A DNA stretch of 64,000 nucleotides, from the NCBI RefSeq assembly GCF_001447785.1, contig NW_015167060.1, forward strand, positions 274,041 to 338,040, written 5' to 3'. Each line of letters opens with the position of its first letter. The stretch's first letter is position 1. Shown here one piece after another: positions 28,848 to 56,944 of this stretch. This DNA comes from Gekko japonicus. Taxonomy: Eukaryota. The position numbers and the translations under genes are program-made. A model generated the notes under the pieces. The model saw only the letters and a program-made list of their open reading frames with translations, was not told where the DNA came from and searched no databases.

Positions 28848-28895
28848 TCATTTCTTCCAGCTTGAGATCTGGCTACACATCCAGTTCATGCCATC
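28848..28895 (-). CDS. ARL3-like coding exon 6
   Basis: [15 protein letters not shown]. Confidence 0.92.
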   Translation of the reverse strand, partial: DGMNWMCSQISSWKK

Positions 28896-31800
28896 CTAGA
28901 AAGATAAAAGTGAGCAACAGCTATTACTGGGCCCTGAGCATTCCCATTTACCATTACCAGCTCTAAAACCATTATTTATTCCTTTTATTAGTCTTGTATC
29001 CTGCCGTCCCCGCAAGCAGGCTCAGGGCAGGTTCCATCAGGATCGCTACATTACATAATACAATTAAAAACAATTATAGACTCCTTTGAAATCTCTTTCT
29101 ATGCATATATACCCCAAAATGTTTGTACCTGGACTCCTTCACCAGATATGGCTGAACAGGCTTGGATTTGCCACGGCCGGTCTCGATAGGTGTGCAGGCT
29201 CAGTCCTTCAGCAATGTCTGCGGCAAGCGATGCTGTTGCCAGATCCTGCTTGTTCGCAAAGACCAGCAAAGGGACACCAATGAGATTGCCTTCTTCCACT
29301 AATTCCGACAGCTCCTAGTAAACACACATACACACACACAATGCTCTTCAAGGTGATTCCCAGTCCAAGATACAATGGCATGTATCTTACCACTCTACTA
29401 AGTAAAGTTTGAACCTCTCCTCCAGTGCGTCCTCCAACTTAAGTGGTTCTTCCTTCAATGGAAAAGCCGTTAAAGTTGGAGACAGGCTCCTTAAGCTGAA
29501 GAACTTCCTGCAGCCTAAGGTAAGATACATGCCAGTGGCATTGGATAAAAGCAGTATAAATTAAAACAACCAATCAAACAACTAAAATACACATAAGGTG
29601 GTAAGAAAATCAACAGTAACAAAATGGATAGGCAACAAATGACAGAAATGTTCATGTTATTTATTCAAGATTGGTAGCTGTGTTTGTCTGTAGCAACAGA
29701 AAAGAGCAAGAGTCCAGTAGCACCTTAAAGACGAATAAAATTTGTGGCAGGGTATGAGCTTTCATGAGTCACTATCTGATATCTGAAGAAGCGAGCAGTG
29801 ACTCACGAAAGCTCATACCCTGTCATGTTGTTAGTGTTAACATGCTCTGTGCCGGGCTACCTTTGAATATGCTTTTGGAATCTTCAGGCGGTCCAGAATG
29901 CAGCTGCTAGATTGCTGACAGGGTCACCCTTGTCTGCTCATATAGTATCAATGTTTCAGCACTTGCACTGGTTTCCAATCAGCTTCTGGTGCCAATCTAA
30001 AGTGCTGGTTTTGACCTATAAAGCCCTAAATGGTCTGGAACTGCCTTCCCTGTGTGACCCCCCTCACCTCCTTAGATCATCACAGGGGGACCTTCTACAG
30101 GTGCCTGGTCTGCTAATTGCCTGCCTGTCAACCACCAGGGCATGGGCATTTTCAGTGGCTGCCCCCTCTCTCTGGAACCAGCTCCCCGGGGCAGTTTGTG
30201 CCCTGAGGGACATTCCAGTATTCTGTAGGGCATGCAAGGCTGCTTTGTTTTGGGTGGCCTTTGGTTAGCATTACAACTGGGAGCTGGCCAGTTGTTTAAG
30301 TCCTTCTGATTGGCTTGTCAAGTTGATGTTTTGATTGGTTTTATGGTTTTATACTTGTTGTATTTATTTGTATTATGTTTATATTTTTTGTATTTTAAAT
30401 GTTGTAAGCTCCACCAAGTCCCCTGTGGGGAGAGGGTGTGGGGCATAAAGTAAATAAATAAATAAGTGCTCACCAAAATTTCAACAGAATAAAACAATTT
30501 TATATTGATGCTGAAAATAAAAGAGAGTAGGTACCAAAAAGTGTCTCCAGGGAGGGTATTCAGGGTGCTACCACCATGAAGGCCCTATTCCAGGTTGCCT
30601 CTCACCCATCTTCCAAAGTCATAGGCACTTGGAACAGGCTTCAGATGATGACCTTTATGTAGAGGCACATTCATACTGAAGATGTTGCTCCTTCATGTAC
30701 TCTGATCCAAGACTTTTTTAGAGTAAATAGGCCAATACATACTGGAAGCTAGTGCAGGCTCATTTGGCATCAATAAGGTATACTCAGTATGGCAGGTCCC
30801 ATTTAAAAATATTCCAAACTAGTTGAAGTTTTTGAATACACTTCACTATACACCCCCACTATAATAATCAACCTCAATATTAGCAAAGGCCATAACTGTA
30901 ATAAAGTCACCTGCTTCCAAGAGGGGAAACAGCTGCTCCACCAAGTGACGTTGATGGAGGGAATTCCATGCCATGAATGCTGCTCGGGCATCCATAGGGC
31001 AAGATCTAAAAGGGCCTCATAGTTTCACTACAAGAGCAGAGTAAAAGAAGTGTGGCATTAAAGCACCGACCAAGAACTCTGAAAACTTAGTTCCAGTATT
31101 AGATTATGTAACTCTAGATAATATTTTTACCCTCAATGTTTCCAGTTTATAACCCTGGTTGTGCAGTTCTGTACAGTTTAACTGATGGGGGGGAAGTCTG
31201 TAGAAAATCCTGCTGTAGGATGGAGTTATGAGACTGGATGAAGCAGCCTGCCTATCCTACCTGCCCAGTCTCTTCAAACCGTTTCTGGTCAGCGCTGTCA
31301 ATAACATAGATCTGCAATCAGAAAAAAAGAGAGTCACCTACTGCCTACCATGACTGTTATTGGTCCCAGATCCTTTTCATCAACTCCTATCCATAAACAG
31401 CTAATACTACTGGAGGTTAATTCTTCTTATACAGGGCTCACTTAAGATGACTGCAAGACATTTTTGTTGCCTGAGAGAGAGAGAATCCAAGTAGAATAGT
31501 AGCAAAAACAAAGTAATAAAATTAACTGAATAACTATCATATAATGGTATTTCAGAGTCTGCAACATGAAGCACATTGGCTTAAATTGCCTTATTTGCTG
31601 GGGGTTAACTTTACCCTAGATTCCACTACTGTCTACCTCTTCATGTTCTACAGAGGCAGTTGGGGTAGGGGGATGGTCCCCATGCTCACCAATATGTCCG
31701 TGCTGACCAGATACTTCTTCCAGTAGGCCCGGATGGCCCGTTGTCCTCCTATGTCCCAAAGAGTGAGCTTGAAACCATGAGCGTGGACACTCTTGATATT

Positions 31801-33971
31801 GAACCCCTGTGAAGATGAAGTGGGAAAAGGTGGTACAGGAAAACATGACAGTTACTGAGTGTGTGGCCATTGCATAGCACAGGAGGGGGACCAAATGTCT
31901 AAGATACAAATTACATATTAAATATAAACAAGTATAATAATGGCTTGTTGGCCTGCTGCAGTTGGGAAAGCTACTTCTGGTGGAGGCATTCAGAAGTGAA
32001 GAAGGCCTTAGAGCAGCCTGTGCCAACTCCAGCTTGGGAAATTCCTGAACATGTGATGGTAGTGTCTGGAGGGACGGAGTTTGACCAGGAAGCTCAGCAG
32101 GGATGTGATGCCATAGAGACCACCCTCTGAAGCTGGCCTTTCTTCCAGGTGAATTGATCTCTGTAGTCTGGAGGCCAGGGTAATTCTGAGATAACTTCAG
32201 GCCCTGCCTTCCGGTTGGTAACCCTGCTGTCTCTTTGTTCCCAGTCATCCTCCTCAGAAATAAATTTTTTGGATCTAAATGGATCATCAGACAACTGTTG
32301 ACATGTGCATCCGTATCGTGTGTAGTCTGGGCATTTGAACACTCAGGAAGAAACTATGCATTACAAGCGATGGTGCATGATATTTTTTTGGTGGCTGCTG
32401 CCAAGGTGGATTCAGGAGGGAACATGGCAGAGAAGGTGCCAGGGAATAGCATTGTGCTTGCGCGCACACAGAAACCCCCACTCCCACCACTTCTTCATTA
32501 CAACATGTAGGGAGTTTGCATACAATGTGTGATTGGGCTCTAAAGATGCTTGAGAATTCAGATGAGAAATCTTTTAATAAAGTAAAAAGGTAAAGGTAAA
32601 GGTTCCCTTGCACGAAATCCAGTCGAATCCGACTCTAGGGTTGCGGTGCTCATCTCCATTTCAAAGCTGAAGAGCCAGCGCTGTCCGAAGACATTTCTGT
32701 GGTCATGTGGCCGGCATGACTAAACGCCAAGGCGCATGGAACACTGTTACCTTCCCACTGAAGCGGTACCTATTTATCTACTTGCAATTTCTTGCTTTCG
32801 AACTGCTAGGTTGGCAGGAGCTGGAACAAGAGACGGGAGCTCACTCCATCATGCGGCACACTCGGGTCTCGAACTGCTGAACTACCGACCTTCCACAGCC
32901 TGCAGTTCAACATCTTAACCACTTGAGCCACCGCAGCTCCTTTAATAAAGTATATTAATTTAAAAAGTAAATTCAGTCTTCCCCACTCTCCTGTCCCAGT
33001 GGCTGAGCTACAGGTCTATCACAACTAAAGCTAAGTGCCAGTATGTTATAGGAGAGGGGATTGATGGGCTGGGCACAAAATGGCTAGGGTATTACCGCTG
33101 GCATATCCTTAGAGGAGCGTCTCAGATCTACATGCTTGAGGTTGAAGTAGTCATAACAGCTGCAGCAAGGGTGTTGGTGAGGGTCCTACTTGCAAACCAG
33201 TTTCTCTAAGTCTCTATGTAATGAGTTACCCAACTGCTGAATGTCCCATCCCAACCCCTCAACACTGATCCTCTCTGCTGAGGGGCTTACCTGTGTGGGG
33301 GTGATGGTGTCCACCTCTTCCGACGCCAGGCACTTCAACAAAGTGGTCTTGCCAGCATTGTCCAGTCCCAGTAGAACAATCCTCAAGTCTCTCTCTTCAG
33401 AACCTTTAAGCTTTTGGATGACTGACAGAAGCCCCTGTGTTGTGAAAAGAGGTTTCGTAGACGGGGCCCTTTATTCATGTGGCCGAGAAAAAAGTGATAG
33501 GGCAAAGCATTCTATGGAAACACAATGGGGTGCTTCTGTGTTTGCTGCGGGGATGGGGGCCATACCAGAGTGGCTGCCAAGCTTGACTTTTAGAACCTTC
33601 CTCTGACCTGTCATTTGGTTCCTCAAGACTTCAGAGTTGATCCAGGGCCCTAGCAAAACATATGCAATTTTAGCCCTACTTTTGTGACTATGTTGTTCTG
33701 ATCTCAGTATCGTTCCCTGCTCTTCTCACATAGGAACAATTCTACCAACCTGCTCCACTAGCCCCAGGGATCCTTTCTGTTCCTTATGATTGTCTGTTAC
33801 AGAATACTCTGTAATGCCGACAGGTCTTGTCTCTGAAACCAGAGGGTAGGAATTACTTCTAGGGAGCTTGGCAGCAAGCACCAGTGGCTGACTAGCCACA
33901 CTGTAAATAAGGTTCCTGAGCTATTTGCTGCTGGGTCGGAAGAATCGACTTACCTTCTGCACTTCACCCAT
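28848..33971 (-). CDS. ADP-ribosylation factor-like protein 3-like GTPase (ARL3 paralogue), complete 6-exon CDS, 187 aa
   Basis: Exons 33954-33971, 33291-33434, 31690-31806, 31261-31311, 29129-29314, 28848-28895; sum 564 nt; G1 [15 protein letters not shown]3 WDIGGQ, G4 NKQD, G5 CSA; ARL3-like sequence with N-terminal MGEVQK extension. Confidence 0.93.
29129..29314 (-). CDS. ARL3-like coding exon 5
   Basis: [62 protein letters not shown]. Confidence 0.94.
29667..29838. mobile_element. Penelope-derived fold-back with hammerhead-like core
   Basis: CTGAAGA-AGCGAGCAGTGACTCAC-GAAA at 29783-29810; same family as 3884. Confidence 0.6.
29850..30465 (+). mobile_element. L2-type LINE 3' fragment
   Basis: [21 protein letters not shown]...[17 protein letters not shown]; (TAAA)n tail. 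Confidence 0.75.
31261..31311 (-). CDS. ARL3-like coding exon 4
   Basis: [17 protein letters not shown]. Confidence 0.93.
31690..31806 (-). CDS. ARL3-like coding exon 3
   Basis: [39 protein letters not shown]. Confidence 0.94.
32585..32940 (-). mobile_element. Sauria SINE, full length
   Basis: (ACCTTT)n tail on minus strand, tRNA-like head, TSD TTTAATAAAGTA. Confidence 0.88.
33291..33434 (-). CDS. ARL3-like coding exon 2
   Basis: [48 protein letters not shown]. Confidence 0.94.
33954..33971 (-). CDS. ARL3-like coding exon 1
   Basis: MGEVQK|gtaagt. Confidence 0.8.
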
Positions 33972-34257
33972 GATCAGGCCCTCTACAGGCCCTCCTCTGC
34001 AGATCCAGACTTCGAAGAGGCTTCCTGTACTAGCTAGTGGCTAGGTTCCTGCTGTGTGACTGACATGCCTGGCTCCAGCTAGGGGAGGAAGAGGATTATG
34101 ACTCCAGGATTAGCTTGTGTCTCTCCATTGACCTAGGGTACTTAGTAATACCCTATGTAAATCCCCATTGCCAGCTGTCACCTCAGCCTGACCAGACCTC
34201 CCTGCTGAATCTATAGGATAAGATGCCGTGTTGGCCGAGCCAGTGTTAAGCACCTAC

Positions 34258-34379
34258 CTGGGAACAATAGAGATTTTACTTGGACAGCTGTAGTCGATGA
34301 GGATTTGAATATTTTCCCTTAAGCAGTTCGAATGAAAATAATCTCCATCCAGAAGATTTGACCAGGTTGGCCATGGTCC
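34258..34379 (-). other. Candidate 5'-UTR exon of the ARL3-like gene
   Basis: Polypyrimidine tract + tgcag acceptor and CAG|gtaggt donor ~290 bp upstream of the ATG; contains a short uORF. Confidence 0.35.
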
Positions 34380-35550: not shown

Positions 35551-35633
35551 NNNNNNNNNNNNNNNNNNNNNNNNNNNNNNNNNNNNNNNNNNNNNNNNNN
35601 NNNNNNNNNNNNNNNNNNNNNNNNNNNNNNNNN
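35551..35633. other. Assembly gap (83 N)
   Basis: Run of N. Confidence 1.
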
Positions 35634-38600: not shown

Positions 38601-38880
38601 GGCCTACTCAAGCCCACCTAGGATCCCATTCTGACACACACACGAGATTTTTCAGTATTTAGACCACTGCCTGGCAACCAAGAGGGAACTAAAATAGGCT
38701 TCACGGGGAGAGCTGCACTCCTTTCAGCTTTGTCTTCCACATCACAGGTTTTAGTCTAGTCACGAAGCTTTCATCGCTGTCTAACTAAAGGTGGTATATT
38801 CAGTTCAATAGGCATGAGTAACAGCACCTTTTTCATGCAGCCTCAAGGACAGAGTGACATGATTCTATACTGATACTTCT

Positions 38881-40956: not shown

Positions 40957-41019
40957 CTAGTCCCCCTGAAGATAGGCCTTCCACATGCACACTGTGCCAT
41001 CCAGTGAGACTGACACATA
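40957..41019 (-). CDS. WD40 gene coding exon 17
   Basis: YVSVSLDGTVCMWKAYLQGD*. Confidence 0.88.
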   Translation of the reverse strand, partial: YVSVSLDGTVCMWKAYLQGD

Positions 41020-44000
41020 CTGCAAGGAAACAGAGAGGTGATAAAGTCAGGGACCAAGAGCAATGGCATATGGCTTTCTTCAAGGACTGGATGCATTCAT
41101 GCAGCACACTGGGAATGCTTCCATCGGCCGTGGAATATTCTTGGGCACATTCTTGGCTTGCCAGAGAAGGCCTCAAAAAAAACCTGTGGCAGCTTAGAAA
41201 ACAGGCTAGGGTGGGAACAGACATGTTTCTTCCCTCTGAAGGCCACAACTTAAACCCAGAAAACAGCAAACCATCAGTTCAGTCTGACCCACATCTGTAC
41301 TATCATCTTGGCTGTGGAAGGAGTGGCACCATGACAAAATACACGTGTTTATACAGGGATAGTTTGGTGTGGGACAAGCCTGTGCCAGTGCCACCGCCAC
41401 CATGCTCAGTAAAGTGGACACATGAACCCACTGTGTAATGACATTATATCAGCATGCACTCAGCCCTCTGATGGGGGGAGGTGACTAATAGATGCTAGGT
41501 GAGAACATACAGCACATGTAGAGCACATGGCTTGAATATGCATCAGGGCAACTGCCTTCAAATAATGCTCAGTGGTAAAAGTAGTTAAACTCTCAACCTC
41601 AGAACCAATGATCTTCCCCCACACACACAGGGTGGTGCCACTGTCCCTTGTACCTGTTCCATTTCTGGGACATGGATGACACCCTTGATGGAGTCTTGAT
41701 GCCCTGTGTGACTTTGTACCTGCACCCCAGAGTTTGGGTCATAAACCCTACAGAGAAAAGAAAGAAGAGCCATCAACGCATTCACAGGCCTCCTGTCCTC
41801 TGATCCTCCCTTCCCCAGCCACATGGTCCCATAGCTACCTGATGGTGTCATGGACCCCTGCAACTATGCAGCCATTGGCCTGATCAATGCAAAGGCAAGT
41901 GATCCCTCTGGGGGCTCTCAGGTCCTTCATGCAGCATCCCCCGTCTTCACTCTGTATGTACCACAGACAGAGCTGCTGTCATCCATGCCCACTACCAAGG
42001 AATACCTTCTAGTCAATCCCCAGCAAGGGGATTAGTAACAATCTGTTTCCTAACTGTTCTATAACCAAAACAAGAATAACAGACCTACCAGTACTAAGAC
42101 AAAGAACAAGCGACAAACTGGGGGAAAGTAGTAGAAAACCCACTGAAACACTTAGATATGTACGCAAATACAGTCACTTATATATTTAGATACTATATCA
42201 AAATTTATATGGAGGCATATTAGCCATAACAATACAATATCTCAGTGCTATATAATAGAACAATACAAATTGCAATGTTGCTAGCCAGAACGATCATTAG
42301 AATATTGCTAATCCATTACAGGTAAGTTTTTTTTACAAGTTCAAGTTTCAAGTTTACAAAGCAGCCGGCTTTCGCTTGGCTTCAAAGCTTAGCAGTATAC
42401 AGACAGGTCCAATATGAGAAGTCTTCATGGGAATTGAGGGCTAGTCCCAATACTAATTGTAGCAACCCTTGAGAAGAAGGTGCTTCTATAAATCAGAAAG
42501 GTGCAATTTCAAACTATCAAATATTATGACACAATATAAGTTCTACTTCTGACGAAGTTTTGACACAAACCAAGCAAAAGCCGGCTGCTTTGTAAACTTG
42601 AAACTTGAACTTGTAAAAAAACTTACCTGTAATGGATTAGCAATATTCTAATGATTGTTCTGGCTAGCAACATTGCAATTTGTATTGTTCTATTATATAG
42701 CACTGAGATATTGTATTGTTATGGCTAATATGCCTGCATATAAATTTTGTAAATTTTGATATAGTATCTAAATATATAAGTGACTGTATTTGCGTACATA
42801 TCTAAGTGTTTTAGTGGGTTTTCTACTACTTTCCCCCAGTTTGTCGCTTGTTCTTTGTCCTCCTAACTGTTCTATGACAGGCCTATTTACTATATCTCAG
42901 ATTTGGCAAAATATGGTCAGGAACAATGCTCCCTCTAAACTGTGGAGTCTTGTGAGCAAAAATTCTACTTTGTGAGCTACTGGCATTAAAGTTGTGAGCA
43001 AGCGATTTGGCTGCTTCATAAATTAGTTTGCTCTGGAGCCCTCCTTCCTGAGCTAAGACAAAAATGTGTGAGCCGGAGGCTAAAAAATGGTGAGCTAGCT
43101 CACACTAACTCAGCTTAGAGAGAACACTGGTCAGGAATTCACCTCAGTTTACCAGTGGTTGAGGAAAAATTGTTTTCTTACCTCCCCGTCAGCATAACAG
43201 TGTCTATTATACTTTTATTCTGCCCTTCCTCCAAGGAGCTCAGGGTGGCATACACATAAGTCCATTTCTCCATTTTGTATTCAAAGTAACTCTGTGAGGT
43301 AGGTTAAGCTAACAGAAACTGGCCCAAGGTCATCCAACGAACACTGGCATGGCTGAGCGGTAGTTTGAATGTAGGTCTTTGTGGTCCTGGCCCAGCTCTC
43401 TAACCTCTATCCCACACATATACTCACTACTTGATGAAGCCCTTACCCAGAGCCGAATGGAGCCATCTTCAGAACCACTGACCCACTTGTCCTCTAATGG
43501 ATGCCAGACCAAGGCTACAACACTAGCTTGGTGCCCAAGTTCAGCCAGAAGTACCAGATTGGCACAGTGAGGATTGAAAGCACAGATAAAAATTCTGCCA
43601 GTGCTAGAAGATAAAGCAAATTCTCTCCTGATAGGACCAGGAGAGCGTGGATGTGAGGATGGTAACAGGAGTGAAAAGCCCTAAGCCCAAACCCAACAAT
43701 AGTGCTTCTTGCACTTGATATTGCCCCTGAGCCAAGGGACATATTCTATTATATTCTTCTTCCCAGCAGGGGCCCTCAAAAGATAAAAGGGAAGCTCATG
43801 AACACCCTACAGCTGTGCCACTTGTGAGAGGCAGGCAGACTCACCCACCTCTTTGGGGAGTAGGCCATATCAAGGATGGGCCCATTGTTCCCAGGTACAC
43901 TGGAAAACTCGTTTTGCAAGGAGTGGTTCTGCAGATCCCAGAGACACAGCCTTCCATCCCATCCCCCACTGAGCTATAATGAAAAGCAACAGGGTGAGGC

Positions 44001-47000
44001 TGCGTTTCAACATTTTTCTCCCTCCCCAAAGTTGTTGATCATACCCACCCACATCTTCTGCCCACAGCATGGACCACGAGGGCTGTTCCTGTGCCCGTGT
44101 CCTTCTACTTGCCCTCTCCCACCTATTCCTTCTGCCCAGAGACAGAGGTGGGTCTGTCTCCTGCCATCCCTAGAACGTTCATTCTCTTGTTCACTTACTA
44201 AGTAAGGGAAACAGATGGTGGTGTCACTGCCTGCCAAGGTGAGTGCTGTCACCATGCCTGTGTGCCCACACAGCACAGTTCTGCAGGCAAAACCTATTTA
44301 GAGAAATATTGGCAAGAGAGAGAGAGTCACAGGACACGGAGAGTGGGGAAGGGCGAAGAGAAGCTCTTTAAGCACCCAAGAATGTCCCCTGGATATGGCT
44401 GAGGTGACTTTACCCCACTAAAGTATGCCTGGTCAAACCACTTTGTTCACCTGCTACACACTTGCTTGAAGGGTCCTGAACCATCTCATCTTGGGCACAG
44501 GCTGGTGCTGGGGCTCTGGAGTCTTGGCCCTGTAGAGAAGGGTGTGATTATAGTATGCAAGACAATATCAAACCCTTAAGGGAGTCTCGTAAATCTTCCT
44601 CTGCAATAAGCAAGGCATCTTTAACCACTAGGTTCTCAAGAGAAATCTATATCTCAAATATAAAGGCATGCTTAACTCTTTGGCTCCCATTCCAAGGACC
44701 CTGGGAATTATCAGCACCGTCATAAAACAACTGTACCCAGGAGAGGTACCTCTGAGAACAGCCCTGACAGTTTGTTGCAGACACTTGCTACATACCCCAA
44801 AAAAGACATAAGTGAGCTCCAAATAGGAGTAGGAGCCCATAAATTTTCATCCTAATCCACCAATTGGAGAGAATGAAAACTTCTGTATTTTTTTTACTGA
44901 AACTGTTCCTTTCTTTAGGAGAGGTATCAGCAACTGATTAACTTCTGGCCTTCATATTCTCAGAGGAAGTGTGGTGATTTTTTCTTGCCTCTCTGTCCCA
45001 GTAGCCTGTTTCTGCTCAACGCCATTTACTTCAGTTCAGTCTGCAACACAGCCTGAATCCCATTAAGTTTCTGGAAGCTGCATTCTGGGGATTTCCATCA
45101 TGCTATGAACATATTTTTCTCCCATCCTGTCCTTTTTATTTTGTACTGAACATCCAGCCTACTGAAGATTTGTGAGGAACTCAAAAGCTTACAGACTGTT
45201 TTGTGACATTTTGATTGTCACAGATAGCAAAGTATTACATGACTTTTGATGTTGCCTTTCCCCCCTTGTCATCCAAGACTGCTCAAGGTTACTGAAGGTG
45301 GAACAGAGAATGGAGTTTCCCAAGCATGAACCTGTATCAGGAATGGCCTAGCCTACCATGCTGCTCTGATACCACACCACAGTTCACAGTCAGCTAGTAC
45401 TTTCTTAGATCCTTCAATTAAATGCATGTGAGTGGCTGGCATAAATTTCCTGTCAGCAAATGTCACTCTTGCCTTGCAGAGGACCTACAAGGGGACAACT
45501 TTTGCCTTCCTCCTTCCAGTCACTGGAAATGTTTGGGGTAAAGTTTTACTCTCACCTGACCAGAGGATTCGGTGCCTGGGATGAAGCTCTCAAACTCCCA
45601 GAGATAAATGTTTCCATTAGTTGAAGACACCACCAGAATATCCAGCCCCTCAGCGAAGATGGCCCTGCCAAAGGTCCAGACTTTCATTACTGAGGCAACA
45701 TCCTACTCAAAGGTTCACCCCTAATTTCATAGAGAAAAAATAGACAAAAGAGCCAGTGGTGCAAATAAAGAAGGATATTTTATTGTACAAATAAAAAGTT
45801 CCCTATGCATCCTCACTGAAAAACTGGCAGATTCCCCTGAGGAAGCATGGGGAACATTTTACTTGTACAATAAAATATCCTCCTTCATCTGCACCACTGG
45901 CAGATTTGCCTGTTTTTTTTCTCTGTGATTGGTACAGCCCTTTTGTTTCCTCTTAACTTCTAATTTCATGACAAAACACCATTTTCCTCTCTCCTACATA
46001 TTTTGGGCAATTCTGAGGTATCATTTTCTAGATATAGTGATCTTTCATCTCTTTTGGAAGGAATCATCTTCTGAATGCCAAGTCCAGTCTTATCTATCGA
46101 TTGTGCACATTTCTATTCTGCCCTTCCTCCATGGAGCTCACACGGTAGCATCCATGGTTCTCCTCTCCTCTATTTTATCCTCACAACCCTGTGAAGCAGG
46201 TTAGGTTGAGTGGCTGGCTCACGGTTGCCCAGTGACCTTCATGGCTGAGGGGGATTTGAACCCAGGTTTTCCAGTTCCTTAGTCCAACACTCTAACCAAT
46301 ACACCATACTGATTCTTCTGCACGCATGGTCCATTGTGTGACACTGTATTGTCTCTAGTTACTGTCCCTTTGAGAACCCATGTAACTAAATGGAAATGGA
46401 AAGGGGTCAGTTGGAGAAGCAAATGAAGGTGGCCTGCCTGACCTCCTGAAGAAGAAGGTGGCCCCTCTGCTGCTACAGCTCACATTCCTGGAAAGTACCC
46501 ATTTGCAGTTACCTCACAAAGCCTATGCTTTCCTTATGCGTGTCCTTGGCCGTGGTCCGGAATGGGCTGTAGCCACTATGTTGTCTACTAGAAGCCTTTC
46601 CCCCTTTTTGAGGAGAACGTGGACGAGGCTGTGGCTCCTCCCTGCAGCTCTTCTCCACCTGCTGTGCAAAGGGGCCTCGTCGCTCCAGGTGCGCTTCACT
46701 GATGTGGAAGGACTCCATGCTGAATGAAAGGTAAGAGGCACTGGGTGGGCTAGGCTGGTGACCGACTACTGTGCAATGGACGGAGTAGGGCGTTGATTGG
46801 CTACAGGTGAGAGGACAGTGAGCTTGCAAAGGCATGAGGTTGGATGGTTGCATAACTAGAACAGGCAATGGAAGGGGAAGTGGCAGGGGGCAGCTGGAAG
46901 TCTGCTTGGGATGGCAAGGGTTGCAGTGGAAGGCGACAAGGAGGAAGACCAGAGCAGTAAAGGTGAAGAGGATAGCAAGTCTTGTTTGGCAGCTGGTGTT

Positions 47001-50000
47001 TGGATAGCTGTACTGAACAGGGCAGTGTAGAGGCAGATGCTGGGGAAGTAGTACCCTTCAGAAATCCGTGTGAGAGCTGGAAAGGGGGACTCCACGCCTA
47101 TCATGGCACTACAGTCCTAACTTTCTGTCTCTTGCAGGGCCAGAGATCCTAAGCTCAAGGCAGAACCGTAGATTAAAAGGCACCATGTTTATTAGTTATC
47201 GGCTGGCATCCTCCCTCCCCCTTTTGTGCTCTGAGCTCCCTCCCCCCCCCACCCAGAAAAGGGTGGTGGTGGTCTGGAACTGGGACAGATAATATAGGAA
47301 AATCACCATCTTGGATTTTTATTCTGTATTGTAATTTTTACTGTTATATAATGAATTCTAATTTTAAAACATATTTTATGGCATTATGCCTTGGACATTG
47401 CCCAAAGCCCGGTGCGAACTGGGATAGAGCAATTAATAAATCTAAGAATTTATCATCATCATCTTCAACAACAACAACAACCTCTCCCATGAGTCTTCAG
47501 ACTAGCAGAGGACTTTTATCTGGGCACCAAATCATGTAGACCTGCTACAGCATTTAATTTCCCAGACTGTTTCTTCAGACAGATTGTTTAAGATAAGATA
47601 CAGGAAGAGATCTTTAAAGTTTGTCACCCTGATAAAAGATACCTGAGAGGGACAGCACTCCCCGCAGCTCTCTAAAAACCTTCTACTTGCAGCCATTATC
47701 AGGGACTGGCAGCTGTTTTTGGACAGTGGACTGAGGGGATGAAACATTACCTGTAGATGAAAGGGGATATGTAGCTCCTCTCCCATTTCTGCAGCATTCC
47801 ATTACTGTCTCCACTGAAGAGCAGAATGGGCTCCTTCTTAGCTAGTGGGGATACATTCAGAAGGTCAGCCAAGGACAGCATGGGCTTGGAGAAACCAGAC
47901 AAAGGGATTATTCCAGGACAAATAAAATACAGACTGACTCTGGCGAGCAGCTGGCTTGGCCCCTGCCAAATAAGCTTCTTCCGGCTTTCACTTACTACAG
48001 ACAATACCCCTCAACTGAAGGGAGTTCATCACATCTCCCTCACTCATCTAGGGATGGCACGGAGCAGGGCTAGAGAAATCTTTGGCCCTCTTACCATAAG
48101 CAAGGCACTCCATGGGGTGTTTGCAAGGTAGCACTATCAAGCACCCCAACTCACTGTAGCGCCAGACCAGCATTTGCTGGGGTTTTGCTGAACCTGAAAG
48201 AAGAAGGTAAAAGTCTTACTGCCCAGTGGACCCTTACAGCAGAGCACAGAGGTTAGGTCAGAGGGCCCCTGATTGCAGCAGTGAGGTGGGTTGTGACCAG
48301 AGAGAGAGCTTTTTCATTTTCTCTTTTGTCTTTTATTCTATGAACCACCTTGGACAGATCTTTGAAAAGGCAGCACATATATGTGTTAAATAGATACATA
48401 AAATCTCCACCTAGCTGGATATAAATGTGAGACAGTGATGGCAGCTAATTCATATAGCCTCATGAAACATGATAGAGTTTGGGACTGGTTCACACATGAG
48501 GCAAGGCAATGAGATGACAAAGACCCAGCACACAAGCCTAGACTGCACACGTGGAGGATCACGGGAAGATCACCTTTTGGAACGCTTCCCCGTGTAAAAT
48601 TCAATGCAAAGAGACTGGAAGAATTTTTTCTCCCTGCCACCCTGCTTTTGAACTTGCATGGAGGTTTTTTATGTAAAGAAACATTCAAAGCAGCAGTCCA
48701 CCACCTGCAGTCTGAAGTTGTACACTCCATTTTACTAGCCCAGGATTCTGCCAACACATTATCACCTCCCTCCCCCGCATGTGAGATCTTAGATCTTAGT
48801 CTCTCTTGAGTGCTACAAGTTGCACCTAGTCTGGGTCTGAGGGCCTAAATACATGTTGCATTTCCTCATGTTCTCCCAGGTGCACATGATCAGACATGTT
48901 CCATACCAGGGACTCAGGCATGTGCAGGCCGGGTTTGGATCTGGAGTGTGGTGCATGGGGAGAGAGTGCTTAAGTATCCAACCCCCATGCAATTTTCCTG
49001 ACCTTAAACAGCTCCAGGGAGCCACTATGAGATCTTTTCAGGAAACATGCATGGGCTACTAGGCCCTGCCCACAAGCCCTGTGAGCTGTTGGAGGTGGAA
49101 GCATGGGTGATGCTGTGACCGCCCCCTCACACTGCTCTAGGAATTCCCCCAATCTCCATGGAAAAGACCATAGAAATTAGGTCAATTCCTACAGCATTGG
49201 GGGGGGGGAGCTGGGATGTTGCCCCTCTGAAATGTTGTTCTGGATTGGGTGCAGGCAACAGATGGCAGAGGCAGGAATTCATCTACTGGAGGCGGGCACC
49301 TGGCAACCCTGTACTTGTAGCCCAGCAATACATGTGGTTTTCCCAGTGGGGCAAACAGTGCCTACCAGGGGTTATCTCAAATGGGGAAAATAGCATGGGG
49401 GGAAGGACAGTGAATGCAGAACCCACACATTAGTGACTAGGAGACCAAGACTGCAATCCTAAAGACACTTTCCTGTGAGTCGCCCAACCCCACTGAATAA
49501 CATAGAACTTGATTAAGATTGCTCCTCAAGTGCAGTCTTGTACTGCAGGTGCCATGGGAGGCATCCTGCTGGGATACTCACCACTGAGATACTCACCAAT
49601 CACATGCCTTGAGTCTGGTAGGCTGAGAAGCTGCTGAAGAACAAGCCCCTCCATCTGCTGGCCTCGGAATGTGGATATGAATTGTGAAACCTGAAAAGAG
49701 GCCGGACAGAGGATCCAGAGTGGAAATATTTAGCTTCTGTTCTTCCCTATTCCTGCCCTGCATTGTGGAATTGTACACAAGAGCCATCTTTACCAGGGAG
49801 TCAGGTAAAGGCCTAATGGGAAGGGGGAAGCAATCCAATCACATCGGACTCCTACAGTACATGACAGAACTCTTGATGGAGCTGTGAATTCCTGTTCTCA
49901 TAATAAGTTCACAGCCATGTTGAAAAATCACCGAAAATTCAGCAGTAGTTTGCTTCGTAATTGCTAACCATGCAAAAGTGATGAAATTCCATTTTGAGTA

Positions 50001-53000
50001 TATTTAGGGGAGAGCTTGGGGACTAAGGGATATAGTATGGAAACATCCATGAAGTAAGAGTAGTAACAAAAGCAAAAATGCATCTTTTTATCAGGCACTA
50101 AGAATGGGAGAATACAGCTAGGGAAATTATTTGAAGAGACCAAATTCAGTCTTAATTCTATCTGATATATAGCATTTGAGAGGATCAGAGTGATTTCTCA
50201 GTATGAAATGGATGCATATGGTCTTTTATGTTACGTACATGATACCATTTACTCATAATGGATGAGCAGCTTGTTACAAGAAACCTGTCCCCAAAAGGTC
50301 TTTGTAGCTTAGAACAAAGCTTGAGTCCAGGGACACTTTTGAGGCCAACCAAGTTTTATTCAACGGACTCAAACTTTGTTCTGCCGCTTCAGACCAACAC
50401 AGCTACCCCACCTGAATCTTTGTAGCTTAGGTCATTTTCAGCTACTGTGACTAAGGAATTTCTTTGTAGTCAAAGCCAAGTAAGAATGGGGAACTCTTCA
50501 AAGAAAAATTATCCCAAGGAACAGTTACCCTTTATAGGTCACTGATTCTCAAATGATCACTTGGTATGAACTATTACATTTTTGACAGATTGCTAGGCTG
50601 GTAGGTTAGAACCAGTGAAGCATGAAGGTTATGTGTCTCCATCTATATCTGGTAGTCTGTCCCAGAGACCTCCAGTTTATATAGTCAGCAGAATTATGGG
50701 GTAAAGTTTGGCTATACCACGTGCAGCTGGTGAGGGCAGGGCATGTTTAAATTCTTCCCACACAATTCTCACACTTACCTGCAGCAGCCTCAAGTGATAT
50801 ATGGTCCTTGTCAAATTTTGCCATTAAATTCTACTCAATATATAAACCAGGTAAGTGACAGAGTTCTGCTTGTGGGTCCCCTTATAGTACAGCTACATAT
50901 TATATTTTGTTCTGTGATCATTTTAAAATACATTTCAAAATATTCCAAATGCTGCTGCTGGGGCTGCCTTTTCAAAGAGGAGAATGGAACAGCGGGGTAT
51001 GTTTGCGTATGCTCTCTAACCCTTTTCTCTCCTGCTGTTTTTCTGCTGAAAAACACCAGCCTAGGTCACTGTTACCCCTGCCAGGAAAAAAAATACGGGT
51101 TTCTACAGTGAACAACATGGCCAAGAAGACTTTGGCAACTCTTGTTTTCAAATATTACATATTTTCACTTTAGCAGGAAGGAAAACTGGCCAGTGCTAAT
51201 ATATATCATCTTAATATATACTTTAAATTAAGATCAGACTGAAAAACAAGCCAGCTTGACTGACAATGCCTAGCATTGCAAAAGGAGGAAAATAAGTCGG
51301 GTGATCATCTTAGCTACAAGCCAGGATGGTGCTGTCAAATACAGGAAGGGAAGAAGAGCATATCTTTCTGACATATGCCAAACTAAATTCCTTTCCTGAC
51401 TCCAAAATTGCTTTTGCAAAGTCACCCGTCTTCATTCTCAAAACTCATTGAAATGACTGCAATAACAAAGGATGCCAGCAGAGGCCCCCTTATAACAGCA
51501 AGTTCATTGCTCTCTATGGAATAAAGCTTTTGAGGTGGGACATATCCACAGAGGAAAACACCCTGCTGAGTCACTCACTATCTCCCCGGATTGGGGTTCA
51601 TAGAGGGTGGGATGGGATGTACCACTGGCGATCCAGACAATGCCAACAGTTGCCACATAGCACAGTGCTGTAATGTTGCTGGTGAAGGGGCCAAGGCGAT
51701 GGATCAGCTGTCCATCCTGGGACCAGATGCCAACCGTCTGGTCAAAAGAACCCGAGAGCACCCTGCAAAAGAGAACACAGAGCAGGGGTTCAGTAAAGCA
51801 GGAATCGGCAGTGAAGTAGAGGGGTCAAGTATTCCATAAGTAGTAATTGGTTTTCCCAAGCTACACTCTGCATATACCCAATTCTGTCTCTCCAGTATAC
51901 TGTAAAAAGCATTTTACCCTTTTCTGTATCAGAAGGTCTCATGGATACTCTCCCTATTCAGTTCCCTCCCTTACATCCTGCCCTTTCCACTTCCTCTTTG
52001 TGGTAAATACTATCCTTCCCAAATCCTCTAGCTTCACATTTTTTACAGCCCAACCTATAAAATACAACCCATTCAGAAAAAGAGACATTGGGGCAGCTTC
52101 CCATATGAACTGTTTCTAACACTGCACTTAATATAAATGGCCATATGGAAACAGGGTGTCTGCACAGCACTTTTAAAAGTGAGTTAAATGTGCATTCAGT
52201 GCATATATGACCTTTGCAGTCCACAGGTGACAATAGTCTTAAAGGTGCCACTGGACTCAAACTTTTTTCAGGTTACAACAGTGTTAGTGCTCACATTCTT
52301 CAGATGCAGGACCAATGCGGGCTACATAGTTTGGATAGGTATTATTCAGACTTTTGATAGAAAAAAGCAGAACTTACTTTTCCCAGTAAATGCTTTGTCC
52401 ACTTCCTCATGATTCTGGTTTTACACTAATATGAGTGGGCACTGCCCACAGGTTGCGAGCCAGTGCAATTTGTAACTATCCTTCTGCATTGGAAACTCCC
52501 TTTCACAGGGTACCTGCTGGTGACTAATTGGTTGCTCTTCACCGATCCCTTCTGTTTTGGGCAGAATGGCCCCACTGCTGGACCTCCTGAGGGCAACTGG
52601 TATTTTTGGCCACTGTGTGACAGAATGTTGGACTAGATCATGGGCCATTGACCTGATCCAATATTGGCTCCTCTTATGTTCTTAAGGACAGTCAGTTAGA
52701 ATAATAATAATTAATAATTAAATAAATAATTATTATATGGCATTGTGTGTAGAATAGCCAGGAGATCCTAAGATTGTCTGGCAGTCATAAGTTCTAGCTC
52801 TTCAGTGTTATGCACTGCTAGGTGGTGAACTAGATCTGTTTTTAAGGCAAGAGATGTTTCAGAGATGGTTTGCCACTGCCTCTGTGTCTTGCCCCTGGTA
52901 TTCCTTGGAGGTCTCCCTTCCAAATACTAGTCAAGGTCGACCCTGCTTAGCTTCTGAGATCTGACAGGATTGGGCAAGCCTGGGCTATCCAGGTCAGGGA

Positions 53001-55337
53001 GTCAGTTAGATAGATACTTCCCCTCATCCGAACACCCCTTTCAAGATCCCCTTTCTGAGACTCCATCTATTCCACCTGTCCTTCATTTCCCACTGGGCTT
53101 GTACCTTGTGGTTTCTTGCTGGCGCACGAGCAGCAGATGGGTGATGGCTGCCTTGTGGGCACGTGAGATACAGTGCTTAGTTGTTAGGCCTTTCCTGCTC
53201 GGAGACTGGTACGTGTCAAAGATCAGCAGCCTCTTGTCATACCTGGGAAAGGAAAAGGAGAATTGATCTACTTGAAGGTGACGCTGGTCTCAGTAGGTTA
53301 GATTTAAACCTCTGTCAGAAGTGGGGCCATTATAAATGAGAGCTTTCACTTGTAAAAGGGAACTGCATATCCCTCCAGTTTGCAAGAAAGCCACATGACT
53401 CACTGCATTTGTACCTCAAAGCTACCTGGGGAGCCACATTACTGTAGCCTTTCACAGAGTAGTCATCCCCTTCTAGTGCTATGTAGAGCTTTGGTAATGC
53501 TCTGCATGACGTAAGTGGATAAAAACAGCAGAAATAACAAAGCAGCAACATCAGCTGGTGTCCTTCCAATGGCAGCAACTCTCACTGGCATTGGAGAGAG
53601 AGCTATAGTGTTTGAAGCCCATGTACAGATGCAATCAAAGTCTTCACCCTCACCTCCAGACTCACCCTGCAGTGTATATATTGTTGTCTAAGCAGGTGAT
53701 GCAGGACACGATGTCTGTGTGGGTCTGGTCTGAAAAGCCCTGGCTCAGGTTGACTACATGCCCAGACTCTCTTCTCTCGTCCAAGGGGAAGGCCACCAGG
53801 AGTCCTTTGCTCCCACAAAGCAGTAGGTGGCGAGCCAGGCTGATTGCCAGGGTAAAGATGGGGTAGCCTAGCTGGAGAGAAAGGGCTCAGATGAAGGACA
53901 GCAAGAGTGTGCACGCCAAGCAAGGAGTTCCAGGAATGTTACCACAGCACAGCCTAGCCATTGCTATGCAGGATTCTCCAGAAGGTCTCTGCCTTGTATA
54001 GATTTTCATGGAGTTGGACCAGTACGTTGCTCTTCATCGAGCAATAATACTAATACAACACCATCTAAAGTTGATTTTGTTTTGCAGAATTACCATCTTG
54101 CTGCAAACCTAAGGACTCCAAATTATAAGCACAAGGCCATACCCTAGTTTCCCATGAGATGGGCAAGGGTCTGGCATGGTCACCGTAGGCCAGTGATGGC
54201 GAACCTTTTAGAGACCGAGTGCCCAAACTGCGACTCAAAACCCACTTGTTTATCGCAAAGTGCCAACACGGCAATTTAACCTGAATCCTGAGGTTTTCGT
54301 TTAGAAAAAACAACTCCTACATTAACATAAGATGATCCAAACAAAGTAAGGAAAGCAATCCCAAATGCTTTCATTTACTTAAAATTATTTGGCAGAGAAT
54401 TCCACACTTTAATGACGGTCTGGGCCTGGCTGGGGCGATGGCACACGTGTCCACTGAGAGGGCTCTGAGTGCCGCCTCTGGCACGCGTGCCATAGGTTCA
54501 CCACCACTGCTGTAGGCCATGCAATCAGTTCTGCATAATGACGTATGCCTTGTGATGAGTTATTTTTGGTCCTGAGGTAAAGCAAAGAGGTGGTTCTTAC
54601 CTGAATACGGTCAAGAACTGTGCCTCCTGGAGCCCACACAATCACAGAGCTATCGTTGGAGGCAGAGAAGAGGAGACGTGCCTGTATCCAGGACAGGAAC
54701 TGTGTAACCCGGCCAGCATGCTCTTTGGTGCGCAAAGACATGTGGCCATTCTCCATGTCCCACCATTTGATCACTCCATCTATTAGGGCAAGAAAGAATG
54801 ATAGGTTTGGCTGGGGAACCATTTGTTAGGAAAAACCACAATCCATTCATTTCCATTATATCTGAAGAAACTATACAGGTAAAGGTTATCAGCTTTTGAC
54901 TTAAGAATAGTAGGCTAATGTGGCGTTCCCAGATGAGCTGAAGCATGCCTCTGGAAGGAGCATTTGGATGTGGGATCCTGCTTGTTAAACATATGCTGAA
55001 AACACATGGATGTGTTGGGCTTTTGCTATGCGTGGATTCTTGCAATCTGCTCTGGGGATATTTAATGGACCTGTGCTTTATTGTGGGCAATACAAAAAGT
55101 GGCTTTAGTACATAGATATTATTGCCCCCAGATTGTGCACACATGTATGGAGCAGGAATGGCAGTGGAAAACAGCTCGTCTTCCTAAGGCTCAGAAAGAA
55201 TTGAGAAAGTTGTTTCTTTCCAGCTCTGACTCACCCTCGAAGCCAGTGAGGCACTCACGTCGAGCTGCATGGTAGCCAAGAGCTGTTATAGGACGGCGGT
55301 GATGTTCCCTTATGCGCAAATGCTGCTGCATCGCCAT
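40957..55337 (-). CDS. Uncharacterised WD40-repeat protein, 17 coding exons, 719 aa
   Basis: Exons 55235-55337, 54601-54779, 53666-53871, 53105-53242, 51579-51762, 49597-49690, 48095-48193, 47751-47841, 46513-46719, 45556-45664, 44451-44529, 44199-44293, 43849-43973, 43447-43627, 41839-41951, 41654-41747, 40957-41019; sum 2160 nt, no internal stop; repeated WD signatures (EDGVIKWWD, SASNDSSVIVW, SGSFDQTVGIW, SGGWDGRLCLWD, SGSEDGSIRLW, SVSLDGTVCMWK). Confidence 0.88.
41654..41747 (-). CDS. WD40 gene coding exon 16
   Basis: VYDPNSGVQVQSHTGHQDSIKGVIHVPEMEQ. Confidence 0.9.
41839..41951 (-). CDS. WD40 gene coding exon 15
   Basis: SEDGGCCMKDLRAPRGITCLCIDQANGCIVAGVHDTI. Confidence 0.87.
42063..42860. 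mobile_element. Large fold-back insertion, probably Penelope-like
   Basis: Inverted arms 42098-42379 / 42570-42859; 15-bp direct repeat TCCTAACTGTTCTAT flanks; CTGACGA at 42549. Confidence 0.7.
42924..43129. mobile_element. hAT MITE (same family as 27651, opposite orientation)
   Basis: Perfect 8-bp TSD GTCAGGAA; shared interior. Confidence 0.85.
43215..43410 (-). mobile_element. tRNA-derived squamate SINE (related copies near 5545+, 27350-, 28030-, 46110-)
   Basis: Shared CTGTGAGGTAGGTT...TGGCCCAAGGTCA...TTTGAA core. Confidence 0.5.
43447..43627 (-). CDS. WD40 gene coding exon 14
   Basis: REFALSSSTGRIFICAFNPHCANLVLLAELGHQASVVALVWHPLEDKWVSGSEDGSIRLW. Confidence 0.9.
43849..43973 (-). CDS. 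WD40 gene coding exon 13
   Basis: LSGGWDGRLCLWDLQNHSLQNEFSSVPGNNGPILDMAYSPK. Confidence 0.87.
44199..44293 (-). CDS. WD40 gene coding exon 12
   Basis: GFACRTVLCGHTGMVTALTLAGSDTTICFPYL. Confidence 0.87.
44451..44529 (-). CDS. WD40 gene coding exon 11
   Basis: GQDSRAPAPACAQDEMVQDPSSKCVA; needed to bridge phase 0 to phase 1. Confidence 0.75.
45556..45664 (-). CDS. WD40 gene coding exon 10
   Basis: AIFAEGLDILVVSSTNGNIYLWEFESFIPGTESSGQ. Confidence 0.87.
45730..45925. repeat. ~90-bp-arm imperfect inverted repeat, Penelope-like
   Basis: GCCAGTGGTGCA..GGATATTTTATTGTACAA / TTGTACAATAAAATATCC..TGCACCACTGGC with CTGAGGA near centre. Confidence 0.6.
46513..46719 (-). CDS. WD40 gene coding exon 9 (polar/basic insertion)
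   Basis: SMESFHISEAHLERRGPF...KDTHKESIGFV; phase 2-2 fits neighbours. Confidence 0.78.
47751..47841 (-). CDS. WD40 gene coding exon 8
   Basis: AKKEPILLFSGDSNGMLQKWERSYISPFIY. Confidence 0.85.
48095..48193 (-). CDS. WD40 gene coding exon 7
   Basis: GSAKPQQMLVWRYSELGCLIVLPCKHPMECLAY. Confidence 0.85.
49597..49690 (-). CDS. WD40 gene coding exon 6
   Basis: VSQFISTFRGQQMEGLVLQQLLSLPDSRHVI; alternative donor at 49582. Confidence 0.82.
50313..50416. mobile_element. Short Penelope-derived fold-back
   Basis: AGAACAAAG.TTGAGTCC / GGACTCAAACTTTGTTCT; 14-bp direct repeat TCTTTGTAGCTTAG. Confidence 0.55.
51579..51762 (-). CDS. WD40 gene coding exon 5
   Basis: VLSGSFDQTVGIWSQDGQLIHRLGPFTSNITALCYVATVGIVWIASGTSHPTLYEPQSGEI. 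Confidence 0.9.
52838..52999 (-). mobile_element. 5S rRNA-derived SINE (partial)
   Basis: GGTCTCCCTTCCAAATACTAGTCAAGGTCGACCCTGCTTAGCTTCTGAGATCTGAC. Confidence 0.7.
53105..53242 (-). CDS. WD40 gene coding exon 4
   Basis: YDKRLLIFDTYQSPSRKGLTTKHCISRAHKAAITHLLLVRQQETT. Confidence 0.88.
53666..53871 (-). CDS. WD40 gene coding exon 3
   Basis: LGYPIFTLAISLARHLLLCGSKG...HTDIVSCITCLDNNIYTAG. Confidence 0.88.
54191..54509. mobile_element. hAT MITE
   Basis: TIRs CAGTGATGGCGAACCT / AGGTTCACCACCACTG; TSD CCGTAGGC / CTGTAGGC. Confidence 0.75.
54601..54779 (-). CDS. WD40 gene coding exon 2
   Basis: DGVIKWWDMENGHMSLRTKEHAGRVTQFLSWIQARLLFSASNDSSVIVWAPGGTVLDRIQ. Confidence 0.9.
55235..55337 (-). CDS. WD40 gene coding exon 1
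   Basis: gtcATGG context; MAMQQHLRIREHHRRPITALGYHAARRECLTGFE; exon acceptor at 55351. Confidence 0.8.
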
Positions 55338-56599
55338 GACTATGGTCAGTACTGAAGAGAGACAATATGGGAAAGTTTCCAAATCCCAAAGACAATATGA
55401 CAAGTTCCAAATTTACAGATGTCAGAGCTTCAAAGACGTAAGTGAGAATGTGATCTTTAGCAGAATGTACTCAAAATCTTACTCAAGTTTGTCCAATGGA
55501 CTTACTCCCAGACATGTGTTCTTAGGATGGGACGGTGAGTTTTTTGCAAATGTGGAGTCTAGTTTATCCTGAGGTGAATTGATCACAAATCCTTAAAAAC
55601 AAAAAGAAATCTTGTGGTACCTCAAAGACCACGAGATTTATTGAAGCACAAGCTCTAGCCAAGGATAGTTTATGCTTCCATACATCAGTCAGCCTTGAAG
55701 GGGTCATGAGATTCCTCTTTCTTCCTTTCTTTTTTCTTCTGCGGCAGACTGACAGCATGGCAACCTCACTGGAGTCTGCAAGCAGCAGCAGTAAGTATTA
55801 TTTTAAATCACTGTTTAGCCATCTGTGGCATGATTTTCCAAAGGTCACACAGCAGCAGTGTTTTCGTACTGTTCCTCCACAAACTGTATCGTATGCCACT
55901 CATTTTGACCCACCACAAATCCTCAGACACTATGAATGGTACCATGTTCTGTAAATGAAGAGCCCAAGAGTAGGCAGACCTCAGCCCTGAGAAGAAGGAA
56001 GAAGGTGTGGGGAGGCAGCAGAGAGGCTTTTCCTTTCTCTGTTGCAGCCCTGAACTGCCTCGCAGGGCTGAGTTTCTGTCTGGGACAAAGCAAGCCCTCC
56101 AGTCCCTCTCCTGTTCCTCATTGCTCTGATTTCATACCTCTTCAGCGTTTGCTTTGTAGAAGGGAACAAGTGAATAGCTTCCCAAGGAAATTTTCTCTGG
56201 ACCCATATAAAAATAATACTTGCCCTGTATATGTCTTATGTCTGGAAAGCATTACAGAGCTGGGTGGGAAGGGGATCAGAGCATACAGGTGCAAAGGAAC
56301 AGAGGGATCTACCTTGCAGCCTGAATAACTGTGCAGTGCAAGAGAGGGAATTTCAGTATATGTCCGGCTACGCCAGTTTTACCGCTGAGCATGCTCTTTT
56401 ACACATTCGTCAAAGGTAAAGAAGAAGCCCTGTCTTCCTCCGCATCTGGCCACTCAGCAGGACAAGTTACAGTTACCCTGCAAGTTGCAACCTTAAAGGA
56501 CACAGCAGACATCGCGCCCCCGGTCCATGTCCCCCTCCCGTCCCCTCCCTCTTCTGCCTGTGGTGAAGGAGGGACTGCGCAACTTCCCAACATGCTTAC

Positions 56600-56790
56600 A
56601 TTGTGGCGCTCCCAGTCCCTTAAAAACATGGATGATCCTAGTTCGGTCAGCCCTGCAAAGCTCCCCCACCTCCTTTCCTGAGACTTGCCCAAATATACAA
56701 GGTACAGCCAGGCAGCAGGGGTGCAGAGAAGGGTTCTCCGGAGTCTCAGGCTGCCCGAAGAAAGTCAGAGTTTCTCGTTTACTTCCTGCT
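56600..56790 (-). other. Probable non-coding first exon of the WD40 gene (5' end approximate)
   Basis: AAT|gtaagc donor at 56600 directly below a CpG-containing motif cluster; coding exon 1 has an acceptor so an upstream exon is required. Confidence 0.45.
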
Positions 56791-56793
56791 CAT

Positions 56794-56944
56794 GTTACCA
56801 TGGGAATAAGAAGGCGGGAGTGAGCTAATCCCAGGGTTTGCGCTGCTGAAGTGTTTCGTGTCGTGAGAATCAGAGGCGCACCGGTTTTGATTGACGTCAC
56901 ACACCCCGAGAAGCACTGCAATGGTAGGAAAAGCCCCGCCGTTA
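56794..56944 (-). promoter_or_regulatory. WD40 gene promoter: X-box (RFX), CRE, GC box, MYB-like site
   Basis: GTTACCATGGGAAT 56794-56807; TGACGTCA 56892-56899; CCCCGCC 56934-56940; CCGTTA 56939-56944. Confidence 0.55.

Follow-up and report, generated by a model that had tools for sequence, protein, structure and literature searches.

Two intact genes lie between an LMAN2-type lectin gene and the presumed first exon of RGS14 in the stretch of Gekko japonicus DNA analysed here (64,000 nucleotides of contig NW_015167060.1, hereafter the window). We lean towards the view that they are independent neighbours: one is ARL3L, a photoreceptor-biased ARL3, and the other encodes an unnamed WD40 protein with two predicted beta-propellers, which would be a scaffold of ancient origin in motile cilia or flagella. 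Translation exon by exon placed both genes on the minus strand (Table 1) and confirmed what a sequence-only reading of the window had proposed, that two intact, co-oriented genes stand between the flanks. The WD40 gene (2160 nt) is free of internal stops, with consistent phases and GT-AG borders at 16 of 16 introns; it agrees with the gecko RefSeq model P0003 at 665 of 709 exon residues, and exon 3 is 96-97% identical to Gekko and Heteronotia proteins. The ARL3L gene (564 nt) is likewise intact with GT-AG borders at 5/5 introns, its exon 5 matches the Pfam family Arf (PF00025, E 8e-15), and the product shares 178/187 residues with gecko protein P0024. ARL3L is already named in fish, whereas the WD40 family carries automatic names only.

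The WD40 gene belongs to a family that is widespread among eukaryotes and undetected in several vertebrate groups. A profile of 10 squamate sequences, with which 7999 candidates of 359-1292 residues were scored, retained 74 proteins at E<=1e-20, and 71 of these form the family: 24 squamate, 22 amphibian, 12 chondrichthyan, 1 lungfish, 5 sturgeon or paddlefish, 1 gar, 1 hemichordate, 3 tunicate and 2 ctenophore rows. Turtle, crocodilian, bird, mammal, teleost and coelacanth orthologues were absent from this set (0/71). Because tunicates at 36% identity were recovered, annotated full-length amniote orthologues are unlikely to have been missed. On this distribution at least three losses of the gene would be needed within vertebrates, namely in mammals, turtles plus archosaurs, and most teleosts. 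When 1.84 billion representatives were scanned exhaustively with HMMER, the best 150 rows split cleanly into 52 family members and 98 generic repeat proteins, none of which exceeded 38 bits in its best N-half domain. The species name is known for 27 of these 52 rows, which add lamprey, bowfin, snail, sponge, tardigrade, two flukes, acoel and rotifer to the animals, together with 11 non-animal rows from 10 species (Chromosphaera, Catenaria, Sorochytrium, Cladochytrium, Caulochytrium, Diphylleia with two copies, Gefionella, Gloeochaete, Chara and Mastigamoeba). Vertebrate orthologues are 44-94% identical, and the gecko and Catenaria proteins align end to end with 29% identity over 757 columns (E 1e-105). 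The family is mostly single-copy and collinear from gecko to chytrid fungi and protists, and a FastTree tree of 71 rows, protists included, broadly tracks the species tree (with long-branch warnings for protists) and places no unnamed row within tetrapods except one squamate fragment. The family is likely close in age to the last eukaryotic common ancestor. The RefSeq models called 'uncharacterized LOC', 'alr2800-like' or 'HET-E-1-like' in squamates, amphibians, sharks and tunicates are its orthologues, and these names are automatic. We found no publication on the family and none naming six of its RefSeq identifiers; supplements or subscription papers may name it.

This range follows the flagellum among the named holders. 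All 10 named non-animal species belong to flagellated lineages, the named fungi are zoosporic in 4/4 cases, and Chara is the only named streptophyte among the HMMER rows listed; non-flagellated fungi and seed plants dominate public proteomes. Blastocladialean fungi produce zoospores. In the portion of a comparative survey available to us, Sorochytrium is placed among the blastocladialean genera, ciliated zoospores are described for the groups to which Chromosphaera, Caulochytrium and Cladochytrium belong, and the Charophyceae are described as having sperm cells (PMC6492006). Judged by this range, the WD40 protein probably has a ciliary role, and the chances are evenly balanced that the role is specific to motile cilia. 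Its part would be that of a non-catalytic adaptor with axonemal or basal-body binding partners, either in motile cilia or in sperm flagella.

The predicted structure is generic in its closest matches. P0003 scores 103.7 bits against PF00400 (cut-off 27), and the Pfam models that it passes are short generic ones (PF00400, PF25048, PF12894 and PF23760); for the named WD40 families WDR3/UTP12, WDR5, EML, WDR90, WDR41 and THOC3 it falls below the Pfam cut-off in each case. An AlphaFold2 model of P0003 built on a 52-sequence alignment (predicted local distance difference test, pLDDT, 88; predicted template modelling score, pTM, 0.85) is all-beta with two low-confidence inserts. Two propellers are predicted, the first over residues ~1-315 and the second over ~316-719, along with two flexible inserts. 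The second (residues 316-719) resembles seven-bladed propellers (RACK1: Z 36, root-mean-square deviation 2.2, 295 aligned) in a fold search that hardly covered the first. Tandem beta-propellers, predicted for the WD40 protein, are shared with ciliary double-propeller proteins, such as CFAP52/WDR16-type microtubule inner proteins, the WD40 chain of the C2 central-pair microtubule and the N-terminal propellers of the intraflagellar transport (IFT)-A/B proteins, and the range of these proteins is tied to flagellated lineages, as is that of the WD40 family among its named holders. Foldseek matches included the doublet and central-pair chains 6u42_5L, 9e78_0L, 7som_b and 8snb_4A, which we take to be of the CFAP52 type. 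However, similarity to the ciliary double-propeller chains is 12-15% identity with a TM-score of about 0.37, no better than to UTP12 or Gemin5, and the WD40 protein differs from the IFT proteins in having no tetratricopeptide repeat or solenoid tail. By these comparisons it is probably not orthologous to the CFAP52-type, C2 or IFT chains. As a separate observation, the non-animal members P0230, P0264, P0198, P0202, P0233 and P0349 share, by eye, a C-terminal tail with an HPL-x-x-P-like motif, which often continues into a likely coiled segment and is missing from vertebrate members.

Upstream of the WD40 coding sequence, positions 56750-56950 plausibly hold the promoter. The ratio of observed to expected CpG is 0.88 there against a median of 0.18 for 350-bp windows, and the end coordinate that the sequence-only reading gave to the gene pair (56944) falls within this region and outside the coding sequence. 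An X-box-like site with one mismatch is present at 56794-56807. The window holds 3 such sites against 0.81 expected, and 7/100 shuffles reach 3; hence the site alone is weak evidence. An octamer near 56890, spotted by eye, resembles the cAMP response element (CRE) motif. Of the other two X-box-like sites, the one at 62629-62642 (one mismatch) precedes the RGS14-like start codon by about 190 bp, and the one at 21483 falls inside LMAN2.

Several observations weigh against a ciliary WD40 protein, a role which rests on the pattern of presence and absence together with the weak X-box match. No species is assigned to 25/52 HMMER family rows, among which a non-flagellated holder could hide. Ciliates, kinetoplastids, stramenopiles and Chlamydomonas, the best-studied flagellates, are absent among the named rows. 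The flagellated state of Diphylleia, Gefionella and Catenaria is assumed. By description, the groups of Gloeochaete and Mastigamoeba include non-ciliated members (PMC6492006, in part). Three profile searches of the PDB, axonemal structures included, returned generic propellers and no full-length collinear match in their top 60 rows. The losses were deduced from annotated proteins rather than genome scans, and the 395-aa fragment P0224 groups with ray-finned fish and could be from a teleost. These points bear on a rival reading that places the protein outside cilia, as a scaffold in membrane traffic or RNA processing for instance, and ascribes its patchy range to repeated loss and uneven sampling. 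In the ESM Atlas, P0003 and P0181 fell into generic WD40 clusters. The rival reading agrees with the missing flagellates and the unassigned rows, and with fold and family searches for P0003 that returned only generic propellers (UTP12/WDR3, RACK1, WDR5). It does not account well for four zoosporic fungi out of four, for a single named streptophyte that is Chara, or for the X-box-like site in the likely promoter, and we regard it as unlikely.

The second gene had been labelled ARL3-like in the sequence-only reading. Its placement in the ARL3 family stands; the label missed that the gene already has a name, being the orthologue of zebrafish arl3l1 and arl3l2. The ARL part of a gecko model, used as the query, matched 845 proteins, and among the best 120 of the 845, assigned by top score, 85 were ARL3L-like and 35 canonical ARL3. 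In an unrooted tree of 50 of these 120, in which gecko P0024 (95% identical) stands in for the window protein, 30 ARL3L rows separate from 20 ARL3 rows on a branch of 1.04 with support 100/100; the ARL3L clade holds geckos, Anolis, turtles, birds, frogs, coelacanth, sturgeon, paddlefish, gar and teleost arl3l1 and arl3l2. The best 120 rows include 4 turtle and 31 bird ARL3L rows (by our own count) as well as teleost rows, no named shark or crocodilian ARL3L row, and no named mammalian ARL3L, all 8 of the named mammalian rows being canonical ARL3. From these best 120 of 845 rows we infer that ARL3L was lost in mammals. Two identities were rejected: the window GTPase is not the canonical ARL3 orthologue, since it groups apart from mammalian ARL3 and lizards hold a separate canonical ARL3 (P0111), and it is not a reptile relic, being orthologous to the two zebrafish genes. 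Identity of the window protein is 139/187 to zebrafish arl3l2 and 127-128/187 to canonical ARL3. We take 5q35 and 10q24 to be paralogous regions, and from this together with the tree we infer an origin of ARL3L in the vertebrate genome duplications. Models from gar and electric eel (P0112, P0114) fuse canonical ARL3 to a nucleoplasmin domain (PF03066), in agreement with paralogy between the NPM3-ARL3 (10q24) and NPM1 (5q35) regions. The portion of an ARF family survey available to us does not name an ARL3L paralogue (PMC8358228), and no paper among those listed for arl3l has the gene in its title or abstract; ARL3L is a database-named, little-studied vertebrate paralogue.

The residues on which ARL3 depends are retained in the window protein. 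G1, G3 (WDIGGQ) and G4 (NKQD) of the Arf domain are intact, Q71, F51 and Y81 are present, and the N-terminal helix motif is LLxVIxxL, with the same hydrophobic spacing as LLxILxxL. According to part of one study, ARL3 relies on the LLxILxxL motif, F51 and Y81 to bind effectors and on its N-terminal helix to localise to cilia (PMC4635315). ARL3, a cargo-release factor for UNC119 and PDE6D, is also the best PDB match (4zi2, 4goj; E 1e-86), with the G motifs, the three residues and the hydrophobic helix in common. ARL3L differs from it in an extra N-terminal coding exon and in switch II changes of the K73A/P76A type. That exon carries the extension MG(E/D)xQK ahead of the amphipathic helix, as seen in the alignment. 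The clade and a five-residue N-terminal extension are shared with zebrafish arl3l1 and arl3l2 (ZFIN; chr21 and chr14, PMC8405809), whereas teleosts have two copies against one in the gecko window and switch II reads QRAIRAYW in the window protein and QRKIRPFW in zebrafish.

Expression data from zebrafish point to the photoreceptor. In marker tables from single-cell data of the retina, 99% of red cones and 78% of rods had detectable arl3l1 compared with 38-40% of bipolar cells, arl3l2 was detected in about 95% of non-bipolar cells, both copies were detected in most photoreceptors, and arl3a and arl3b did not occur (0 occurrences; PMC8405809). In excerpts of other studies, arl3l2 drops in tulp1 double mutants with photoreceptor degeneration (PMC9672332), and gene lists for hair cells and the optic fissure include arl3l1 as well (PMC5939014, PMC6367446), so arl3l1 is not confined to the retina. 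ARL3L is thus likely a photoreceptor-biased ARL3; a point against this is that the expression evidence is from zebrafish, not gecko. From the conserved residues and the zebrafish expression, we think it probable that ARL3L releases lipidated cargo in a GTP-dependent manner at the photoreceptor cilium. In the GTP state it would free myristoylated and prenylated cargo from UNC119 and PDE6D, as ARL3 does; mammals would have dropped ARL3L and left this job to ARL3. Upstream of the gene, a CRX-type heptamer at 34107-34113, 136 bp before the ARL3L ATG, was rejected as too weak, since the window has 14 of these where 8.7 are expected. At 35551-36400, 1.2-2 kb upstream of the ARL3L upstream exon, 83 N of assembly gap adjoin a stretch of 68% GC, which could be an ARL3L promoter or a repeat.

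The two genes have long been adjacent. The locus tags in Acipenser sinensis are consecutive (FKN15_049302 for WD40 and FKN15_049303 for ARL3L), those of Lerista are 18 apart, and both proteins were found on equal-sized contigs in six species (Heteronotia, Lerista, Ascaphus, Pyxicephalus, Lepisosteus and Acipenser sinensis). The ancestral adjacency supposed in the sequence-only reading is therefore borne out, and these data indicate that the genes are neighbours since early bony fish. Ciliary links were likewise supported for both genes. The same reading had the pair kept in reptiles and lost on the mammalian side. The second part agrees with the lack of any detected mammalian orthologue, which may reflect one deletion of the interval or two losses, but a reptile-specific pair was rejected, since ARL3L is found in turtles, birds and teleosts and the WD40 gene in invertebrates, fungi and protists. 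A functional module, in which the WD40 protein is effector or scaffold of ARL3L (ancestrally of ARL3) and shared function or regulation holds the genes together, would be in keeping with adjacency and common orientation in gecko and sturgeon, the shared contigs, the failure to detect either in mammals and the ciliary links of each. However, ARL3L occurs where no WD40 gene was detected (turtles, birds, coelacanth and teleosts, the last having even doubled it), and all non-vertebrate holders of the WD40 family (invertebrates, fungi, protists) have no ARL3L. Presence and absence are thus uncorrelated, which was the sequence-only reading's own ground for giving up joint action and co-retention, and the module is not supported. 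Moreover, ARL3L is much younger than the WD40 family, each gene begins with a start exon of its own, and sturgeon model P0180 has, by eye, an Ig-like (immunoglobulin-like), membrane-spanning segment between the two parts. The flanking housekeeping genes are presumably old neighbours too, so adjacency needs no functional cause, and we read it as inherited gene order. We consider the module improbable and a direct partnership of the two proteins equally so; the bolder idea that the WD40 protein is an ancestral ARL3-family effector is slightly less credible again. Prediction of a complex of P0003 and P0024 with GTP and Mg gave a score of 0.00 in two runs without alignments, which is evidence neither way.

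A single transcription unit that yields a WD40-ARL3L fusion by read-through splicing was also weighed. The Paroedura picta RefSeq isoform P0004 (811 aa) and the sturgeon models P0180 and P0189 do join WD40 to ARL3L exons in the order of the window, and WD exon 16 (phase 0) spliced directly to ARL3L exon 2 (phase 0) would stay in frame. The candidate linker exon here resembles that of P0004, but its 122 nt are not a multiple of 3 and contain a stop in the homologous frame, so a fused frame cannot hold here. Three exons are missing from P0004, namely the final and one internal WD exon and ARL3L exon 3 (switch II), which would damage both halves of the fusion; both sturgeon models carry the flag UNVERIFIED_CONTAM hypothetical, and an Arf domain is found on just 3/71 family rows. 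None of the 120 ARL3-family matches listed has a WD40 remnant in its N-terminal extension. A conserved fusion protein was rejected on the broken linker frame and the missing switch II exon, and read-through fusion as an account of the locus is highly improbable. An Ig-domain segment also stands upstream of arl3l in the croaker model P0053 (PF13895, PF13927) and, by eye, in sturgeon P0180, which suggests an Ig gene beside ARL3L in ray-finned fish.

Table 1. Features of the window (positions counted from its first nucleotide; exons from high to low)
Feature	Position	Strand	Remarks
Unnamed WD40 gene	40957..55337	-	17 coding exons, 719 aa; predicted double beta-propeller; ATG 55337, stop 40957; from splice sites and tblastn of 5 homologues
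WD40 coding exons 1-9	55337-55235, 54779-54601, 53871-53666, 53242-53105, 51762-51579, 49690-49597, 48193-48095, 47841-47751, 46719-46513	-	
WD40 coding exons 10-17	45664-45556, 44529-44451, 44293-44199, 43973-43849, 43627-43447, 41951-41839, 41747-41654, 41019-40957	-	
Likely WD40 promoter	56750..56950	-	CpG-rich; X-box-like site; CRE-like octamer
ARL3L (orthologue of fish arl3l1/arl3l2)	28848..33971	-	6 coding exons, 187 aa; ATG 33971, stop 28848
ARL3L coding exons	33971-33954, 33434-33291, 31806-31690, 31311-31261, 29314-29129, 28895-28848	-	each exon translated separately; 33971-33954 carries the N-terminal extension
Exon candidate upstream of ARL3L start exon	34258..34379	-	122 nt, AG/GT-flanked; weak tblastn match, E 0.19
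Left flank, LMAN2-type L-type lectin gene	about 12167-23446	-	one exon matches Pfam PF03388, E 2e-12
Right flank, presumed RGS14 exon 1	62828-62872	+	15-codon exon, then GT donor
p24-family gene	5335-9272	-	one exon matches PF01105, E 7e-17
Tandem repeat	57673-58215		209 bp x2.6
Tandem repeat	6533-7019		244 bp x2.0
Tandem repeat	16448-16702		127 bp x2.0

In the human genome LMAN2 and RGS14 are neighbours at 5q35.3; the plus-strand exon in the window is presumed to be RGS14 exon 1, and the p24-family gene that adjoins LMAN2 is presumably TMED9-like. Between the two genes, at about 37620-38050 on the minus strand, a decayed stretch resembles by eye a remnant of gypsy-type reverse transcriptase, and the 43-residue frame tested there had no Pfam match. 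A 98-codon plus-strand frame within a WD40 intron (48513-48806) had no Pfam match and was dropped.

For ARL3L, the part of a zebrafish ciliopathy review available to us treats arl3a and arl3b as the only ARL3 counterparts (PMC9280682). Where ARL3 retinal disease is modelled in fish, frogs, birds or reptiles, ARL3L, which mammals would have lost, may act as a buffer. This carries less weight than the WD40 family, and the WD40 gene is the more interesting part of the locus. Ciliary-gene profiling, as described in part of one such study, was seeded on human genes (PMC5850483), and thus ancestral ciliary genes lost in mammals cannot appear in such lists. The WD40 family resembles an overlooked ciliary gene of this kind; it is old and mostly single-copy. 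On a reading whose chance we put just short of even, the gene has been retained by lizards, snakes, amphibians, sharks, many invertebrates, chytrids and Chara but independently lost in mammals, turtles plus birds, and teleosts, and it marks a structure of the cilium, or a step in its assembly, that has been dropped by human, mouse, chick and zebrafish alike. The family is present in Xenopus tropicalis, as XENTR_v10008326, and in Ciona, as LOC100175309, whose multiciliated cells and sperm are easily studied, and the several independent losses among vertebrates offer a natural test of which part of the cilium the WD40 protein serves.

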